Below, one piece after another: positions 39,135-46,798 of a DNA stretch of 64,000 nucleotides. Where the stretch lies: the NCBI RefSeq assembly GCF_044647545.1, contig NZ_CP172818.1; one strand, written 5' to 3'. Every line of letters begins with the position of its first letter. Position 1 is the stretch's first letter. The notes beneath the pieces are model-generated. The model was not told where the DNA came from. It searched no databases and was given only the letters and a program-made list of their open reading frames with translations. Made by a program: the position numbers and the translations under genes. The DNA comes from Escherichia coli. GTDB lineage: Bacteria; Pseudomonadota; Gammaproteobacteria; Enterobacterales; Enterobacteriaceae.

Positions 39135-39488
39135 AACTCTTCTTTCTAAACGAACCAGTATAGAATTCGCCCTTTTGGCATGATATTAACTTGTCCAATA
39201 TGATCAAATAGCATTAACCCCCCCTCACAACGTCCTGCATAGGGAACACGTTTTCCCCTGTGCACCCACGACTAAATTTCCCCCCCTTTAAACTTCTCAA
39301 TAATGTCACCAATTTTCTGGAAATCCTATGATGCCTTTCCCGGTAAATGGTGCTGTGAGTTCAGAAAGATTCTGCAATCTATGTGCATTGAAAAAATCTT
39401 CAGATAGATATCATTCTCCTGAACAATCCGATGAACGGCAGAACCTCGCGGTTCTGCCGTTTTTGTTTTACTTTTCAGAGGAGTGGTG

Positions 39489-40352
39489 ATGAAAAATTTT
39501 GAAGTTCTGCAGCCACTACAGAACTCCCTTTCCGGTCTACCGCTATGGGTATCTGAACGTATATTGCAGCAGATAAATCAGTTAACCCACTACGAGCCAG
39601 TGATCGGCATCATGGGTAAAACTGGGGCGGGAAAGAGTAGCCTTTGCAATGCCCTGTTTGCCGGTGAAGTATCGCCGGTCAGCGATGTAGCGGCCTGTAC
39701 ACGTGATCCTTTACGCTTTCGCCTGCAGATTGGAGAACACTTTATGACCATCGTGGATCTGCCCGGCGTGGGCGAAAGTGGCGTTCGCGATACCGAGTAT
39801 GCTGCGCTGTACCGCGAACAACTTCCCCGGCTCGACCTGATTCTGTGGCTGATTAAGGCTGATGATCGGGCACTGGCGACTGATGAGCATTTTTACCGTC
39901 AGGTGATTGGCGAAGCATACCGGCATAAGATGCTGTTTGTTATCAGCCAGTCAGACAAAGCTGAACCCACCAGCGGTGGAAATATCCTTTCCACAGAGCA
40001 GAAACAAAATATCAGCCGCAAAATCTGCCTGCTGCATGAGCTATTCCAGCCCGTGCATCCGGTGTGTGCCGTGTCGGTTCGCCTGCAGTGGGGACTAAGG
40101 GTGATGGCAGAGCGGATGATTAAGTGTCTGCCGCGTGAGGCCAGCAGCCCGGTAGTAGCGCTACTGCAACATCCCTTTCGAACAACGGTAGCCCGGGAGC
40201 AGGCACGTGACGATTTCGGTGAAACCGTAGGTGCCATACTCGATACGGTAAGCACCTTTCCCCTTATTCCCGCCCCGGTGCGGACCATTATTCAGGCCGT
40301 GCGTTCCTCGGTGGTGTCAGTGGCCCGCGCTGTCTGGGATTTCTTCTTCTGA
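39489..40352 (+). CDS. yfjP: YfjP, prophage P-loop GTPase (YeeP/YkfA family), 287 aa
   Basis: ORF 39483-40352; ATG at 39489 five nt after GAGGAG; G1 motif GKTGAGKSS, DLPG G3 motif. Confidence 0.88.
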   Translation: MKNFEVLQPLQNSLSGLPLWVSERILQQINQLTHYEPVIGIMGKTGAGKSSLCNALFAGEVSPVSDVAACTRDPLRFRLQIGEHFMTIVDLPGVGESGVRDTEYAALYREQLPRLDLILWLIKADDRALATDEHFYRQVIGEAYRHKMLFVISQSDKAEPTSGGNILSTEQKQNISRKICLLHELFQPVHPVCAVSVRLQWGLRVMAERMIKCLPREASSPVVALLQHPFRTTVAREQARDDFGETVGAILDTVSTFPLIPAPVRTIIQAVRSSVVSVARAVWDFFF

Positions 40353-40380
40353 GTGTTTAATTCTGCCCTATTATTCTCCG

Positions 40381-40412
40381 AGCCCTGTCGCAAGTGCGGC
40401 AGGGCTTTCTTT
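40381..40412 (+). terminator. Rho-independent terminator after yfjP
   Basis: AGCCCTG-TCGCAAGTGCGG-CAGGGCT followed by TTCTTTATTT. Confidence 0.7.
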
Positions 40413-40443
40413 ATTTGTTTTACCCATACTGAGGAGTCTGCTT

Positions 40444-41263
40444 ATGACCCGTCTGGCTTCGCGCTTTGGCGCTGCAAACCAGATACGCCGTGACCGTCCG
40501 CTGACACATGAAGAACTGATACGCCATGTACCCAGTATTTTTGGGGAAGACCGGCACATCCCGCAGTGAACGGTATGCGTACATTCCCACCATTACCGTC
40601 CTGGAAAATCTGCAGCGGGAAGGCTTTCAGCCGTTCTTCGCCTGCCAGACCCGTGTGCGCGACCCGGGCCGCCGGGGATACACAAAACACATGCTGCGTC
40701 TGCGGCGGGCCGGAGAGATAAACGGAGAACATGTCCCTGAAATTATTCTGCTCAACTCTCATGACGGTACCTCCAGCTACCAGATGCTGCCGGGTTACTT
40801 CAGGTTCGTCTGCCAGAACGGGTGCGTCTGTGGCCAGTCTCTGGGGGAAGTGCGTGTTCCACACCGGGGAAATGTAGTGGAGAAAGTTATCGAAGGGGCT
40901 TACGAGGTGGTGGGCGTGTTTGACCGGATAGAGGAGAAGCGTGATGCCATGCAGTCGCTGGTCCTGCCGCCACCGGCACGCCAGGCGCTGGCACAGGCGG
41001 CACTGACTTACCGTTATGGTGACGAACATCAGCCCGTCACCACCGCCGACATTCTGACGCCGCGACGCCGGGAGGATTACGGTAAGGACCTGTGGAGCGC
41101 ATATCAGACCATCCAGGAGAATATGCTGAAAGGCGGGATTTCCGGTCGCAGTGCCAGAGGAAAACGTATCCATACCCGGGCCATTCACAGCATTGATACC
41201 GACATTAAGCTCAATCGCGCATTGTGGGTGATGGCAGAAACACTGCTCACGCAACTGCAGTAG
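40444..41263 (+). pseudogene. yfjQ: yfjQ (DUF932 family), apparently disrupted: 41-codon N-terminal frame ends at 40567, remaining 245 codons are in the +1 frame from 40526
   Basis: ATG 40444 with GAGGAG RBS encodes MTRLASRFGAANQIRRDRPLTHEELIRHVPSIFGEDRHIPQ-stop; the long ORF 40526-41263 is in a different frame; the total span (820 nt) is not a multiple of 3. Confidence 0.6.
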
Positions 41264-41479
41264 ACGTTTCATGTTGCCACGTTGTTAATATCGGACACCA
41301 CCTGTCCGCATCGCTATGTGCTCGTGTGCCTCAATCCCCCGGTTATAGCTTTTAACCCCCGTTACATCTGGCTTTTGCAGAAATAAAAAATAGTTTCTGC
41401 GTTGTCCATACCCTGTCCGCCCCCCTCTTTAAAGTAATCACATCATTTTCAGTCAGTTAACTTTCCTGGAGAATCTCTC

Positions 41480-42181
41480 ATGACACAGGCAGAACGCCGC
41501 CATGACCGGCTGGCTGTCAGGCTGTCACTGATAATCAGCCGTCTGGTTGCGGGTGAAACGTTGAGCGTGCGCAAACTGGCGGCTGAGTTTGGCGTGTCAG
41601 TGCGCACGCTGCGGCGTGATTTTCGTGAACGACTGATGTATCTGGACCTGGAGTATCAGTCCGGATACTGCCGCTTACGCACTGCTGGCAGTGAGATGCA
41701 GATGGTGCCCGACGTGCTTATCTTTGCCCACCGCAGCGGGCTGGCCGGGCTTTTTCCCGGCCTTGACCGCCGTCTGGTGAATGCACTGCTGATGTGCGAT
41801 GAGTCTCCCTGCGTGATAGCACCAGCCAATCCGGTTCCTTCGCCTTCAGGAGCATTGTCTTTCTGGAGACTGATTCAGGCCATTACCGGGCGCAGGCGGG
41901 TGACGCTGATTGCAGAGGGGCGACGCTGTGAGCGCCTAGCTCCCTGCCGGTTACTCATCCACCAGCAGACCTGGTATCTGGTGGCTGAACACGAAGGGCA
42001 TATCGCCGTATTCACACTTGATGAAATCCATCTGATTCAGCCTTTGCAGGAGACTTTTCGCCGCAATGACAGTCTGTGTCGCCTGGTTGAAGACCCGGTC
42101 TTCATTCAGGCCTTACCCCATTTTCGCTTTATCCAGCATTCACTGCTTACGTTTGTTCCGGCCGACAGCCCACCGGAATAG
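41480..42181 (+). CDS. yfjR: YfjR, putative transcriptional regulator with N-terminal HTH (DeoR-like), 233 aa
   Basis: ORF track; translation [48 protein letters not shown]... Confidence 0.85.
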
Positions 42182-42221
42182 CGCAGGCGTTGTTATCAAC
42201 CCGGCAACATGGAGGAGCCCA

Positions 42222-42458
42222 GTGCCCGTTATTGCCATTATCGCCATTGTTATCATCGTCATCATTCTGAACAAAACCGGAGTGTCCGACAGCCTCACGG
42301 CCCTGACACTTGCAACCGTTGCCGCACTACTGACGGGAGGTGGTGCAGCCGGTGCTGCCAGTGTCGCGCTGACGCCGTTCGTCGGCGTGCCGGTGGGTAT
42401 TTTTGTGGGAATTTATGTCTTTGCCAAAGTGGTTCGTCTGATTTCAGGGAAAAAATAA
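42222..42458 (+). CDS. ypjK: YpjK, small hydrophobic membrane protein (about 78 aa)
   Basis: GTG at 42222 six nt after GGAGG; translation VPVIAIIAIVIIVIILNK...; stop overlaps yfjS ATG by 1 nt. Confidence 0.65.
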   Translation: MPVIAIIAIVIIVIILNKTGVSDSLTALTLATVAALLTGGGAAGAASVALTPFVGVPVGIFVGIYVFAKVVRLISGKK

Positions 42459-42901
42459 TGAAACGTAAAACACTACCTCTGCTGGCGCTGGTTGCCACCT
42501 CTCTGTTTCTGAGCGCCTGCGATGACAGGAGTGATGACCTCAAAGCTATCAGTAAATTTAAGGACCTCACGCCCCCGCGCTTCAGCGATGTGGTCAGCCG
42601 TCAGGATGATGTCAGCGAAGAATGGTCACAGGTTGGCTTCTCATCCGGTCTCACCCTGCAGGTCTTACGTACCCGTGAGTCGCCCGATGGTTGCGAGGGT
42701 GGCAGTTACTACTATCTGGTAGATATGGAGGAGAAAACCGTCCAGCCGCTGATGAATGCGCTTTGTATTGCCGACAATATCAAACTGGAATACCACGAAG
42801 TTACGGACCCGTATACGAAAGAAAAATACTTCGAATATTCCCATGACGGCAAACTGATGGGACGGCTGCTGATACCGTCAAACCCTGATAACCGGGAATA
42901 A
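42458..42901 (+). CDS. yfjS: Lipoprotein YfjS, 147 aa
   Basis: In-frame Met within ORF 42209-42901; signal peptide MKRKTLPLLALVATSLFLSAC with lipobox. Confidence 0.8.
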   Translation: MKRKTLPLLALVATSLFLSACDDRSDDLKAISKFKDLTPPRFSDVVSRQDDVSEEWSQVGFSSGLTLQVLRTRESPDGCEGGSYYYLVDMEEKTVQPLMNALCIADNIKLEYHEVTDPYTKEKYFEYSHDGKLMGRLLIPSNPDNRE

Positions 42902-42924
42902 AAACAACGAGAAAGGAGACATAA

Positions 42925-43392
42925 ATGAAAATACGTTCACTAAGCCGGTTTGTACTGGCAAGTACAATGTTCGCCAGCTTTACAGCCTCTGCGGTCCCCG
43001 GACTCTGGCAACAGGGGTACGGTCAGGGCAATGCGGAATACAGTGTGACGGATGCCAGCGGAAAGATGTTTACCATCAACTGCACGGGAAATCCGGACCA
43101 GAACGGTATTTACCAGCACTCGGTTTTTCTGATCCTCGCCGGGGATAAAACGGTCAGCTCGCATGATGACAGTACCGGCATCACAGTGGTGATGGACCAT
43201 AAGCAATATGCCATTCCCTCAACCCTTGGCTGGCGTAACGGAGATAATGCCTGGTTCAGCTTCATCATGGATATCCGTAAGGCCCGGCAGTTCGACGTCT
43301 ACGTCAATGACCAGAAAGTTGGATCGTTTAACCCTGATGTTCGGAATGCACAAAAGGTCCTGCCAACATTAGCGGACTGCACTAACGACTGA
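42925..43392 (+). CDS. yfjT: Secreted protein YfjT, 155 aa
   Basis: ORF track; cleavable signal peptide MKIRSLSRFVLASTMFASFTASA; AGGAGA RBS. Confidence 0.8.
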   Translation: MKIRSLSRFVLASTMFASFTASAVPGLWQQGYGQGNAEYSVTDASGKMFTINCTGNPDQNGIYQHSVFLILAGDKTVSSHDDSTGITVVMDHKQYAIPSTLGWRNGDNAWFSFIMDIRKARQFDVYVNDQKVGSFNPDVRNAQKVLPTLADCTND

Positions 43393-43784
43393 CGGCTGCG
43401 CCTTCCCTACCATAACAACCCTGATTGCCTCCGGCGGTCGGGGGTTTCTTTTTTCTCCTTAATCTCCAGAGGTAGGCCACGTACTTTCGAACGATGAGCG
43501 CAGTGGTCAGTTTTTTTCAGATATATTTATCTTTTTTTGGCTGTAAGCTCCGCTGTGAGCGCAGGCTGTGTGAAAACTCCTGATCACTTCTTGGTCTAAG
43601 CGATGGTTTCATATGATCAACCATTCTTGATAAACCCATGCGACGAACTGACTTTTTCATTAAAATTAGAAATATACGAATGAATACTGCGGATACCGAC
43701 ATGGCCAATCACATTCAAGGACAAGGCAGGCACCAGGTGACATTACTCCCTGATGCACTGGATGATTTTGTCACTGAAGATAAC

Positions 43785-43931
43785 TTAAGTAAGTTTAATC
43801 AGTTCATCACGGGTCGGTGGCATATCGAGATAATTAATTATTGTCGGTTCGTTGCCGTTGTTATGAAGCATCTCCAGCGTGTTGCGTGAGGTGCCACAGG
43901 CCGGGTTGTGATAGATGGTAATGTTGCTCAT
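43785..43931 (-). pseudogene. yfjU: Arsenate reductase ArsC N-terminal fragment (48 codons)
   Basis: Minus-strand translation MSNITIYHNPACGTSRNTLEMLHNNGNEPTIINYLDMPPTRDELIKLT-stop, the ArsC N-terminus with the catalytic Cys, truncated. Confidence 0.8.
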
Positions 43932-43943
43932 ATCAGTATCTAA

Positions 43944-44935
43944 TTACAAAGTGACAGAGAGCCGCCACGCCAGCGCGGCCAGAGTGACAAACAGCACCGG
44001 CACAGTCATGACAATGCCGGTACGGAAGTAATATCCCCAAGTGATTGTCATATTTTTCTGGGCAAGCACATGCAGCCACAGCAGAGTTGCCAGACTGCCA
44101 ATCGGGGTGATTTTCGGGCCTAAATCACAGCCAATCACATTGGCATAAATCATTGCCTCTTTGACGACGCCAGTCGCCGTACTCCCGTCAATCGACAGCG
44201 CACCAATCAGCACCGTCGGCATATTGTTCATCACTGATGAGAGAAATGCCGTCAAGAAGCCGGTGCCGAACGTCGCTGCCCATAACCCCTTGTCTGCCAG
44301 CAGATTCAGCACGCCAGACAGGTACTCCGTGAACCCTGCATTGCGCAGGCCATAGACCACGATGTACATGCCCAGTGAGAAAATAACGATCTGCCATGGC
44401 GCACCGCGCAGGACTTTTCCGGTGTTGATCGAATGACCTCTTTTCGCCACCACAAACAGCACTGCTGCGCCAGCGGCCGCTATCGCACTGACCAGGATTC
44501 CCTGCGGCTCCAGAAAGAAGAAACCGACAAGCAGCAATAACAGGACAATCCAGCCCGCCCTGAAGGTTGCCAGATCCTTGATCGCACTGGCAGGCGTCTT
44601 CAGCAGCGAAACTTAATACGTTGCCGGAATAACTCTGCGAAAGAAGAGATACAGCATAATCAGCGTGGCCGCAATCGCTGCCGCATCCACGGAGATCATA
44701 ACGGAGGCGTACTGCGCAAAGCTCAGACCGAAGAAGTCCGCCGAGACGATATTCACCAGGTTAGAAACAATGAGCGGCAGGCTGGCCGTATCTGCAATAA
44801 ATCCTGCAGCCATGACAAAGGCCAGTGTCGTGCCCTGGCTGAACCCAGTGCGATCAGCATCGCAATCACAATCGGCGTCAGGATCAGCGCGGCGCCGTCA
44901 TTGGCAAACAACGCATCAACAGCGGCACCGAGCAA
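43944..44935 (-). pseudogene. yfjV: Arsenite efflux pump ArsB remnant, frameshifted and 5'-truncated
   Basis: ORF 43944-44537 encodes an ArsB-like C-terminal membrane region; ORFs 44613-44813 and 44753-44935 in other frames carry ArsB-like N-terminal segments. Confidence 0.75.
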
Positions 44936-45094: not shown

Positions 45095-46798
45095 ATGGCT
45101 TTTGTATCAGAAAGAGAAATTGTAAGAAAGATATTTAGCAAAAAAATTGACTTTACGATCTTGGCATTTTTCTATATTTCCTCTATTTTTTTTCTTCTTT
45201 GTAGTGGCGTTCTCTTTCAATATTTTACCGCTGCCTTCACAAAAGGTAATTGTTATGAATGCTCAATGAAACTTGATTACATAAAACAATTTTATTTTTC
45301 ACTGGAAACCGCATGGTACCTCATATCTGCTGTTGCAGTATTTATTGCATCTGTTTTTATACAGCATAGAATTAAAGCTTATTTAACATTATTAGCTATT
45401 ACATGGATTGTACTAACAATAACAGATGTGGCGTTAATACACGCCTTAGACAATATAGCCATGAATAATATTTTGTTAAATATACTATATAATCTTTTTG
45501 GGGCGATTTTATTGTCACTGTTTATGTGTTTATCAAATTCCCTCCTTTTCCACCTTAATAAGATAAAACATATTCCAATGATTTTATCGGCAATGATTCC
45601 ATTAGTTTCCGCAATAATAATAGCCATACTCATAACCGCTGTTATATATTTATTGTTTGCCCGGCAGGCGGTAGAGATTGAGATGGATATATCTGAAGGT
45701 TCAGACATCGCATATGTAGGTGTAAAAGATAATGAGGAATCATTTGGGTTTTTAAATGATAAAAAAACAGACACACCAACGTATCTGGATGTAATCAAAA
45801 ATGGTAGTTTGATATATAATGATACACAGGGTTTAAGTGGTGCTGATATTTATATTGTCTCCGGTTGTTATGCCCTTCCAGATTTACTTCGCAATGTACC
45901 GCTTGATGCTAAAAAATCTTTTCTGAATGTAAAAAAGCTAGAAATCACACAGAAACTTCCAATGATGGGGTTCATACAAGGTGAATCCGCTGATGTGATG
46001 CCTAAAGCAGCATCCAGGTTAAGTTTGAGCAAGCAAGATGATAAATTTATGCTAGCCTCAAGTGTTACTGACTCTCAAATAAAATTTAAATCAAACAATG
46101 CACAATTGATGGTTGCTTTCGCATTTATGCCAATAACAACGAATGGTATTTTACATGATTATACATACGATATAATAATAAATGATAAAAAATATAAAAT
46201 TGAAAATCATGTTGCACCTCTATCTAGGCTTGATAAAAATAAGAAGATGAAGTGTGAATACCAGCAAATATCGGATTTAACAAATACGTATAACATTAAT
46301 GCAAATTACTTAACGGGTTTTTTACTTGTCCTAAAACCAGATGATATTATTAATTACAACAATAGCCCTTCCGTACTACTCAAGACTGATTTTGCGTTCT
46401 ATAAAAAAACATACCAGAAGCTTGATAAAATATATGATGACATAAGCAATGGAAAATTATCTTCACTGAGAGCAACAGGTATCTCCCAGTTTAGTATCAA
46501 CGGGAAACATTTGTCGTTAAGGCCAGAATCGGAGATTATTATTTCTGAAGGGAGTTTGTATGGACTAGTTAATAAAAGCAAAAAAATCAAAATATATGGC
46601 ACAGCAGATCTTGTTTTTGTTGATAACAAGATAATGAACCTTCGTAAAATAACTTATTTGCAATCTAAGCTAGAAATTTTTGGTTCTTCTATTATGGATA
46701 TATTAAAGTATATATTTGGTTTAGGTCTGCTAGCAATTTCTATAAAATTCATTCATTCTTACTTTAAGAATGATGTGAATGAAAATTTATTCTTGTAA
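45095..46798 (+). CDS. yfjW: YfjW, 567 aa, N-terminal polytopic membrane domain plus large C-terminal domain of unknown function; strongly AT-rich
   Basis: ORF track; about five hydrophobic helices in the first ~190 residues; A/T-rich codon usage unlike the core genome. Confidence 0.85.
   Translation: MAFVSEREIVRKIFSKKIDFTILAFFYISSIFFLLCSGVLFQYFTAAFTKGNCYECSMKLDYIKQFYFSLETAWYLISAVAVFIASVFIQHRIKAYLTLLAITWIVLTITDVALIHALDNIAMNNILLNILYNLFGAILLSLFMCLSNSLLFHLNKIKHIPMILSAMIPLVSAIIIAILITAVIYLLFARQAVEIEMDISEGSDIAYVGVKDNEESFGFLNDKKTDTPTYLDVIKNGSLIYNDTQGLSGADIYIVSGCYALPDLLRNVPLDAKKSFLNVKKLEITQKLPMMGFIQGESADVMPKAASRLSLSKQDDKFMLASSVTDSQIKFKSNNAQLMVAFAFMPITTNGILHDYTYDIIINDKKYKIENHVAPLSRLDKNKKMKCEYQQISDLTNTYNINANYLTGFLLVLKPDDIINYNNSPSVLLKTDFAFYKKTYQKLDKIYDDISNGKLSSLRATGISQFSINGKHLSLRPESEIIISEGSLYGLVNKSKKIKIYGTADLVFVDNKIMNLRKITYLQSKLEIFGSSIMDILKYIFGLGLLAISIKFIHSYFKNDVNENLFL

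Follow-up and report, generated by a model that had tools for sequence, protein, structure and literature searches.

The yfjR operon of the Escherichia coli CP4-57 island: a possible regulator-gated envelope-protection cassette

Organisation of the locus

Positions 42,222 to 43,392 of a 64,000-nucleotide (nt) stretch of Escherichia coli DNA (contig NZ_CP172818.1 of assembly GCF_044647545.1; the whole stretch is referred to here as the window) hold the genes ypjK, yfjS and yfjT, the last three of a four-gene operon headed by yfjR. The operon belongs to a backbone that is conserved among related integrase-borne islands, and it may tentatively be read as a regulator-gated cassette that protects the cell envelope by binding. 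The region is 100% identical to that of E. coli K-12 strains, where it lies in CP4-57 and where the annotation places ypjK, yfjS and yfjT after yfjP, yfjQ and yfjR. The three genes are already known (i.e. they are annotated K-12 genes in known families) and are listed as uncharacterised in the y-ome (PMC11551758), while no functional studies of them were found in the literature. What is new here is the assignment of the operon and its candidate operators, the non-phage island context, and a variable envelope slot tied to a conserved YfjT, which together make the function directly testable.

The four genes are closely spaced (Table 1). A gap of 40 nt separates yfjR from ypjK, the ypjK/yfjS junction reads TAATG, in which the A at 42458 is both the last base of the stop codon and the first base of the yfjS ATG, and the 23 nt between yfjS and yfjT contain AAGGAG. 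No promoter-like site was seen between the operon genes and a terminator-like hairpin follows yfjT, in agreement with a single transcription unit. The coupling of ypjK to yfjS through the TAATG overlap, which a preliminary description of this DNA had put forward, is supported as translational coupling. That description also had the coordinates, the GTG start with its GGAGG, the length of 78 amino acids (aa), the one-base overlap, the 23-nt gap, the signal peptide and the gene names right, as well as the envelope targeting of all three products, which is predicted from transmembrane segments (YpjK), a lipobox (YfjS) and a signal peptide (YfjT).

Table 1. Features of the yfjR operon and its surroundings (window coordinates)
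Feature	Position	Strand	Description
Candidate YfjR operator 1	41292-41308	+	perfect inverted repeat CGGACA-N5-TGTCCG (CGGACAccaccTGTCCG), upstream of yfjR
Candidate YfjR operator 2	41403-41418	+	direct repeat TGTCC-N6-TGTCC (TGTCCataccCTGTCC), upstream of yfjR
yfjR	41480-42181	+	predicted helix-turn-helix and WYL-domain regulator; first operon gene
GGAGG Shine-Dalgarno of ypjK	42211-42215	+	6 nt ahead of the GTG at 42222
ypjK	42222-42458	+	GTG start, TAA stop at 42456-42458; predicted 78-aa polytopic inner-membrane protein
yfjS	42458-42901	+	predicted 147-aa lipoprotein; stop codon at 42899-42901
Degenerate sigma-28 -10 element	42770-42777	+	GCCGACAA, inside yfjS
AAGGAG Shine-Dalgarno of yfjT	42913-42918	+	6 nt ahead of the ATG; kept in five islands
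yfjT	42925-43392	+	predicted 155-aa secreted periplasmic protein; signal peptide at residues 1-23
Intrinsic terminator-like hairpin and T-run	43419-43453	+	after yfjT; 11-pair stem with 7 GC pairs, then GTTTCTTTTT

Between five islands that are 10-25% apart at the DNA level, the ratio of non-synonymous to synonymous differences (pN/pS) was 0.10 in the annotated frame versus 2.65 and 2.06 in the other two, and since this ratio is low in the annotated frame only, ypjK is a genuine coding gene under purifying selection in that frame. In four of the five islands, ypjK starts at the same position behind a Shine-Dalgarno and retains the TAATG overlap; in the other islands the Shine-Dalgarno reads GGGAGG and the start codon is mostly ATG instead of GTG. 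The program-made list of open reading frames also holds a 230-aa frame (42209-42901), in which yfjS is prolonged upstream across ypjK in another frame. Coding-type conservation was not seen in this extension and the long form is spurious, a mis-annotation that is also used by some public entries (e.g. P0123, 231 aa). Purifying selection extends to the other three genes, with ratios of non-synonymous to synonymous substitution rates (dN/dS) of 0.07-0.13 for yfjR, 0.07-0.21 for yfjS and 0.12-0.22 for yfjT.

Properties of the encoded proteins

YpjK has a grand average of hydropathy (GRAVY) of 1.57 and three hydrophobic segments, at residues 2-16 (an Ile/Val run), 24-47 (Gly/Ala-rich) and 50-70 (with a GxxxGxxxG motif), followed by a basic C-terminal tail (KVVRLISGKK). 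The positive-inside rule suggests that the N-terminus is periplasmic and the C-terminus cytoplasmic. The only family to come into sight is VraH, for which the NCBIfam model NF033835 scored 26 bits (cut-off 40) over residues 46-68 only (23 residues), while the corresponding Pfam family PF28153 is flagged 'weak' on YpjK homologues; with a match below the curated cut-off that does not cover the whole protein, YpjK is not assigned to this family.

These properties invite the explanation that YpjK is a membrane toxin with partners, i.e. a holin-like or pore-forming protein whose activity is restrained by YfjS and/or YfjT. Such a toxin would either tie the cell to the island by addiction or act in abortive infection once the triggering of YfjR releases it. 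The small size, the extreme hydrophobicity, the glycine zipper (GxxxGxxxG) and the charged tail are all shared with holins and pore-forming peptides, the translational coupling of YpjK to YfjS would suit such an arrangement, and WYL regulators are known to head defence operons, with YfjR matching the PADLOC WYL model. Nevertheless, YpjK has no match to any holin, toxin or defence family, and a place in the holin class finds no backing in a Pfam or PHROG family, nor in the neighbouring genes, which lack a muralytic domain. Signs of a type I system are equally missing: no Rfam RNA was found at the ypjK locus, a conserved antisense promoter is lacking, and YpjK, with its 78 aa and three hydrophobic segments, exceeds the typical size of type I toxins. 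An antisense promoter-like site at 42427..42399 was considered, and a type I toxin-antitoxin or antisense RNA was rejected, as this site is within chance expectation and is not conserved, varying at synonymous sites between islands. Taken with the distribution of the genes (see below), a toxin with partners seems unlikely.

YfjS carries the lipobox LSAC (LFLSAC21-DD), in which Cys21 is followed by Asp at positions +2 and +3, an arrangement that is nearly invariant in the family alignment (A2). Asp at +2 is the classical signal by which lipoproteins avoid the Lol pathway and are retained in the inner membrane. Because of the Asp residues that follow Cys21, YfjS is predicted to be a lipoprotein held in the inner membrane, which is also where its paralogue YafY, from the K-12 island CP4-6, has been reported to reside (PMC6538781; PMC2850352). 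The stretch of residues 35-147 covers the entire Pfam profile PF20494 (YfjS_YafY) with 228.6 bits (cut-off 27), and Cys79 and Cys103 in this C-terminal domain are conserved in the same alignment. The structure model of YfjS is poor, with a predicted local distance difference test score (pLDDT) of 58.7, and its fold matches are uninformative.

Through YafY, which is ~90% identical to YfjS, a third explanation comes into play, namely that the products, and above all the lipoprotein, modulate envelope stress by tuning host Cpx signalling for the benefit of the island. Overproduction of YafY activates Cpx, an effect that among 90 lipoproteins is shared by NlpE alone (PMC6538781; PMC6593411), and which shows that YafY engages an inner-membrane or periplasmic interface. 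On the other hand, deletion of yafY was without effect in lipoprotein-trafficking stress tests (PMC6538781), the overproduction effect may be mere membrane perturbation, and both the interchangeable proteins found in the place of YfjS in other islands and the wider YfjT family would be left unexplained. A role in tuning Cpx therefore appears distinctly improbable.

YfjT begins with a typical signal peptide (MKIRSLSRFVLASTMFASFTASA followed by VPG, with the predicted cleavage between ASA and VPG). Its family is Pfam PF27224 ('YfjT'), a precomputed assignment that is carried by a cluster 99% identical to YfjT (P0001) and by each of the 120 listed homologues; the Pfam scan of the window, with a copy that lacks PF27224, gave no hit for YfjT. 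An exhaustive profile search gave 183 clusters at 50% identity, nearly all of them secreted proteins of ~150 aa and a few of them tandem or fused, with DUF2939 as the sole fused domain identified, and a Pfam scan of 69 family members returned no consistent domain. Only Trp28, Cys53 and Cys152 are invariant across the family (alignment A3), Gly35 and Trp110 being nearly so, and no conserved residue of a catalytic type was seen. Because invariance is confined to Trp and Cys in this way, the pattern, i.e. a putative conserved disulfide plus aromatic residues, points to a binding protein and not to an enzyme.

The AlphaFold model of YfjT (pLDDT 72 overall, 80-93 in the core) is mainly beta, with eight strands and one main helix. 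Its weak fold matches are mostly small beta-barrels, among them lysozyme inhibitors (PliC, MliC and PhiA) and BtaiB, an immunity protein of type VI secretion, which makes a possible likeness to small periplasmic beta-barrel inhibitors or immunity proteins a lead only. The absence of significant fold or profile similarity leaves YfjT outside the MliC/PliC-type lysozyme inhibitors; no significant solved relative of its fold was found, and sequence and profile searches of the PDB with YfjT, YfjS, YpjK and YfjR returned nothing credible.

A CRISPR interference (CRISPRi) imaging preprint places yfjT among 'essential genes of unknown function', with slow growth upon knock-down (bioRxiv 10.1101/2025.06.10.658525). 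This phenotype may be off-target, or may reflect unbalanced operon expression or the loss of a neutralising partner, the last of which would fit a toxin, since ypjK would still be made. Given that the whole element is dispensable and that the list contains many dispensable genes, the phenotype is no more than a soft lead, and as evidence for a toxin it is weakened by the same facts (i.e. the island can be lost, and the effect may be off-target).

Distant YfjT homologues occur in accessory or defence-rich places, for example as tandem pairs or beside a RES-Xre toxin-antitoxin pair, and no constant partner was found in about ten such distant contexts. One of them (L051, 4607-10468) immediately precedes a vgrG-DUF4123-VasX_N effector cluster of type VI secretion and has a NERD-helicase gene beside it. 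On a plasmid of Enterobacter ludwigii (L007, 3626-9130) a YfjT-like gene sits within an array of genes for small secreted Cys-containing proteins. The YfjT-like gene comes after genes for four cytoplasmic paralogues, and the C-terminal motif GW..V...G.QLLF.AD is common to three of these; such an arrangement is reminiscent of a poly-immunity or paralogue array. In Aeromonas and Zobellella, YfjT homologues stand alone.

Regulation of the operon

YfjR scores above the cut-off with both Pfam HTH_DeoR (25.9 bits) and Pfam WYL (25 bits), and matches the PADLOC WYL model over its full length (5e-34). With its N-terminal helix-turn-helix and its WYL domain it is, as judged from domain architecture, a transcription regulator of the WYL-domain class. 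Upstream of yfjR, two candidate operators are found that share CCTGTCCGC. The inverted repeat of operator 1 does not recur elsewhere in the 64 kb window, although 13 of 100 shuffles give at least one site of this kind. In an alignment of nine islands (A4), which includes the most diverged one (L016), the region upstream of yfjR contains two invariant blocks, each of which holds one of the candidate operators.

Binding data for YfjR are divided. A survey by genomic systematic evolution of ligands by exponential enrichment (gSELEX) reports the 'yfjR operon' as the single YfjR target (PMC8249747), but chromatin immunoprecipitation with exonuclease treatment (ChIP-exo) detected no YfjR binding in vivo (PMC8464067). 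With gSELEX positive but ChIP-exo negative, autoregulation of YfjR via the TGTCC repeats would be a reasonable inference and nothing firmer.

A different kind of control is known for the paralogous genes of CP4-6, where yafY holds an intragenic FliA (sigma-28) promoter, with the -10 element GCCGATAA, that drives ykfB, the paralogue of yfjT (PMC4183435). In the window, the corresponding -10 element in yfjS has a C for a T. Of 18 related loci, 14 share this change and the other four keep the consensus, via a synonymous Asp codon. The idea that FliA controls yfjT as it controls ykfB was rejected because of this degeneracy, which the window has in common with most islands.

Island context and mosaic structure

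The backbone to which the operon belongs has a fixed order, comprising a GTPase (YfjP), a DUF932 protein (YfjQ), the WYL regulator (YfjR), a slot of variable content and YfjT, followed by DUF905, an antirestriction protein, a RadC-like protein, DUF987 and CbeA/CbtA. The operon is thus a conserved part of an integrase-borne island family that includes CP4-57, CP4-6 and their relatives, and the same backbone is also inserted in conjugative IncHI plasmids. Among the complete E. coli genomes searched, ~10% carried the module, and many of these carriers are K-12 derivatives. In other islands DUF905 comes directly after yfjT, whereas in K-12 degenerate arsC/arsB fragments (minus strand) and yfjW, encoding a large membrane protein, lie between yfjT and a DUF905 remnant (window 43680-44860 and 45095-46798). 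The abpAB and rnlAB defence genes are located a few kb upstream of the operon.

The preliminary description took the genes to be encoded by a prophage, which is not supported by their distribution. A tblastn search of 50,697 phage records with YfjT and YfjS gave no matches, all 19 matches among the 2.9 million contigs of IMG/VR come with the same island backbone, and the backbone is also plasmid-borne; a phage origin of the module was rejected on these grounds. The same data bear on the idea that the genes are the remnant of a phage lysis cassette, with YpjK as holin, YfjS as a spanin-like lipoprotein and YfjT as a secreted endolysin. The order and sizes of the genes are superficially alike, but the genes are missing from all phage genomes searched, YfjT lacks a muralytic domain, conserved acidic catalytic residues and any fold match that would fit, the Asp at +2 predicts an inner-membrane YfjS and not the outer-membrane sorting of an o-spanin, and purifying selection acts on the genes inside a non-phage island. 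A lysis cassette remnant is consequently extremely improbable.

Nor is there support for the three genes as a unit in the sense of the 'trio' that had been proposed. In a sliding comparison between islands, yfjR-ypjK-yfjS and the upstream region (window 41283-42780) are 90-97% identical at the nucleotide level, whereas the flanks are more diverged (71-87% for yfjP/yfjQ at 39483-41280; 72-87% for yfjT at 42925-43392). Synonymous divergence follows the same pattern, with 0.2-0.35 for the yfjR-ypjK-yfjS block versus ~1.0 for yfjT. Because the identity of the block exceeds that of its flanks, its spread must have been recent and recombinational, i.e. yfjR-ypjK-yfjS moves as one recently exchanged block, while the yfjT alleles are older.

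A variable slot between the regulator and YfjT

In a survey of 43 genome loci from different species, Enterobacterales YfjT genes were found in the island backbone and nearly all downstream of a WYL regulator, with at least 11 unrelated protein families occupying the slot between the two. The K-12 type (ypjK + yfjS) accounts for 12 of the 43 loci, and a Cys-rich secreted protein of ~150 aa for another 12. Other loci have a secreted protein of 154 aa or one of 215 aa, a lipoprotein of 209 aa or a GYF-domain membrane protein. In yet another type, an 88-aa lipoprotein is combined with a membrane protein of 103 aa, and YfjT is followed by a DUF4234 membrane protein. All credible slot products have a signal peptide, a lipobox or transmembrane segments, so that the slot looks like a dedicated, shuffled envelope cassette, a pattern that is usual for exclusion and immunity genes. 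A Cys-x-Gly-Gly-aromatic motif that YfjS has in common with the other slot proteins raised the question of homology, for which profile comparison gave no support (hhalign probabilities of at most 27%).

The three genes can also be separated. YfjS occurs without YpjK at two loci (L024 and L025), in the first of which the YfjS-like gene overlaps the YfjT-like gene by 4 nt, while in a Pectobacterium-like locus a 64% identical YpjK homologue stands after YfjT, without YfjS. Four independent Kluyvera-type records (L033, L034, L078 and L079) share a frameshift near codon 91 of yfjT with ypjK and yfjS intact, and at two loci ypjK is truncated with yfjS and yfjT intact. Several slot variants lack any small membrane protein. 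As each gene occurs without one of the others, ypjK, yfjS and yfjT need not act together. For a toxin with partners these loci are difficult, since the natural yfjT frameshifts, which leave ypjK and yfjS intact, make it unlikely that YfjT is an obligatory antidote, YpjK is found without YfjS, and the presumed toxin itself is missing from several variants.

Such separability could be taken to mean that there is no joint mechanism at all, and that unrelated accessory envelope proteins (adhesion or biofilm factors, or orphan immunity genes) merely share a transcript. YpjK, YfjS and YfjT are each found with different neighbours, yfjT is far more deeply diverged than yfjR-ypjK-yfjS, YfjT homologues occur alone in Aeromonas and Zobellella, and 'biofilm formation' is the label given to the yfjR operon in the table of a review (PMC8249747). 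However, this biofilm link was not validated (PMC8464067), and the conservation of the TAATG coupling, the 4-nt overlap of the YfjS-like and YfjT-like genes in L024 and the linkage of the WYL regulator to YfjT across genera speak against this reading. It is therefore doubtful that the genes have no function in common.

Functional interpretation

Protection of the envelope by a regulator-gated cassette that acts by binding seems possible, if short of probable, in view of the shuffled envelope slot, the mobile and defence-rich setting, the WYL regulator and the apparently non-catalytic YfjT. The recent exchange of the yfjR-ypjK-yfjS block, the accessory or defence-rich surroundings of YfjT relatives and the activation of Cpx by overproduced YafY also speak for this reading. 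WYL domains of other regulators sense nucleic-acid or damage signals. Most likely, YfjR would bind the conserved TGTCC repeats ahead of its own gene and keep the operon low until released by a signal, upon which three non-enzymatic envelope proteins would be produced: YpjK as a small three-segment inner-membrane protein, YfjS as a lipoprotein anchored in the inner membrane and made in step with YpjK, and YfjT as a soluble, disulfide-bonded periplasmic beta-protein. By binding, and not by catalysis, these may shield the inner membrane or the periplasm from an outside agent, for which the entry apparatus of a phage or conjugative element and a competitor's periplasm- or membrane-acting toxin are the candidates. 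Superinfection exclusion, which the preliminary description had in mind, is one sub-case of this.

Several observations weigh against envelope protection. Searches of Pfam, NCBIfam, PHROGs and PADLOC with YpjK, YfjS and YfjT gave no match to annotated exclusion, entry-exclusion, immunity, holin, toxin or defence families; the PHROGs that were matched (3429 by YfjT, 7e-15; 5248 by YfjS, 4e-5) have no annotated function, and in PADLOC YpjK and YfjT matched no model, while the one match of YfjS, to the WYL model, was a stray hit (E 0.029). No phenotype is on record for the three genes, which are uncharacterised in PMC11551758, and the ChIP-exo result speaks against the proposed gating by YfjR. 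In addition, the genes need not act together, and the type VI secretion neighbourhood is a single case among the approximately ten distant contexts of YfjT relatives.

A further step would be to regard the yfjR operon as one allele of an unrecognised class of WYL-gated, cassette-swapping envelope systems, in which YfjT and its interchangeable partners would keep out one particular invader, be it a phage, a conjugative element or a toxin from another bacterium. This generalisation is speculative and, as matters stand, rather unlikely to hold. In any case, the slot between the regulator and YfjT is a swap-slot for envelope proteins on a widespread backbone, including that of IncHI resistance plasmids. 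If the cassette is protective, a function would be obtained for a conserved block that many other Enterobacterales carry as well as about one in ten of the complete E. coli genomes searched, and an envelope-acting output would join the repertoire of WYL regulators; if it is without phenotype, the operon would be ordinary island cargo.

Comparison with known systems

The closest counterpart is the module of CP4-6 in K-12, which consists of YafY, YkfB and a YpjK paralogue and has the same three families in the same order, with the TAATG junction and the island backbone (YafY is ~90% identical to YfjS, YkfB ~75% to YfjT). It differs in that ypjK has lost its start through a deletion, which fuses it out of frame to codon 62 of the yfjR paralogue, and in that the sigma-28 promoter in yafY is intact whereas its counterpart in yfjS is degenerate. 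At the deletion site (~4250-4535 of L064, the K-12 F128/CP4-6 copy) RefSeq still annotates a 75-aa 'YpjK' that starts from ATT. VraH of Staphylococcus aureus resembles YpjK in the C-terminal transmembrane segment and basic tail, with the weak profile match mentioned above, but the match concerns the hydrophobic segment only and there is no ABC transporter adjacent to ypjK.

In phage T4, Imm and Sp form a pair of a polytopic inner-membrane protein and a periplasm-exposed protein, which block DNA entry and the tail lysozyme by binding. As an analogy of working only, this pair has in common with the yfj module a small polytopic membrane protein with a periplasm-exposed partner, while the yfj module is not phage-borne, has a third component and a WYL regulator, and matches no exclusion family in PHROGs or Pfam. 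Defence operons of the BrxR/CapW type, finally, are WYL-regulated. The yfj genes differ from these in that they have no PADLOC model and encode envelope proteins instead of nucleic-acid-targeting enzymes, and in the negative ChIP-exo result for YfjR, whereas the layout is the same, with a helix-turn-helix-WYL gene immediately upstream of, and co-directional with, its presumed targets in a defence-rich mobile island.

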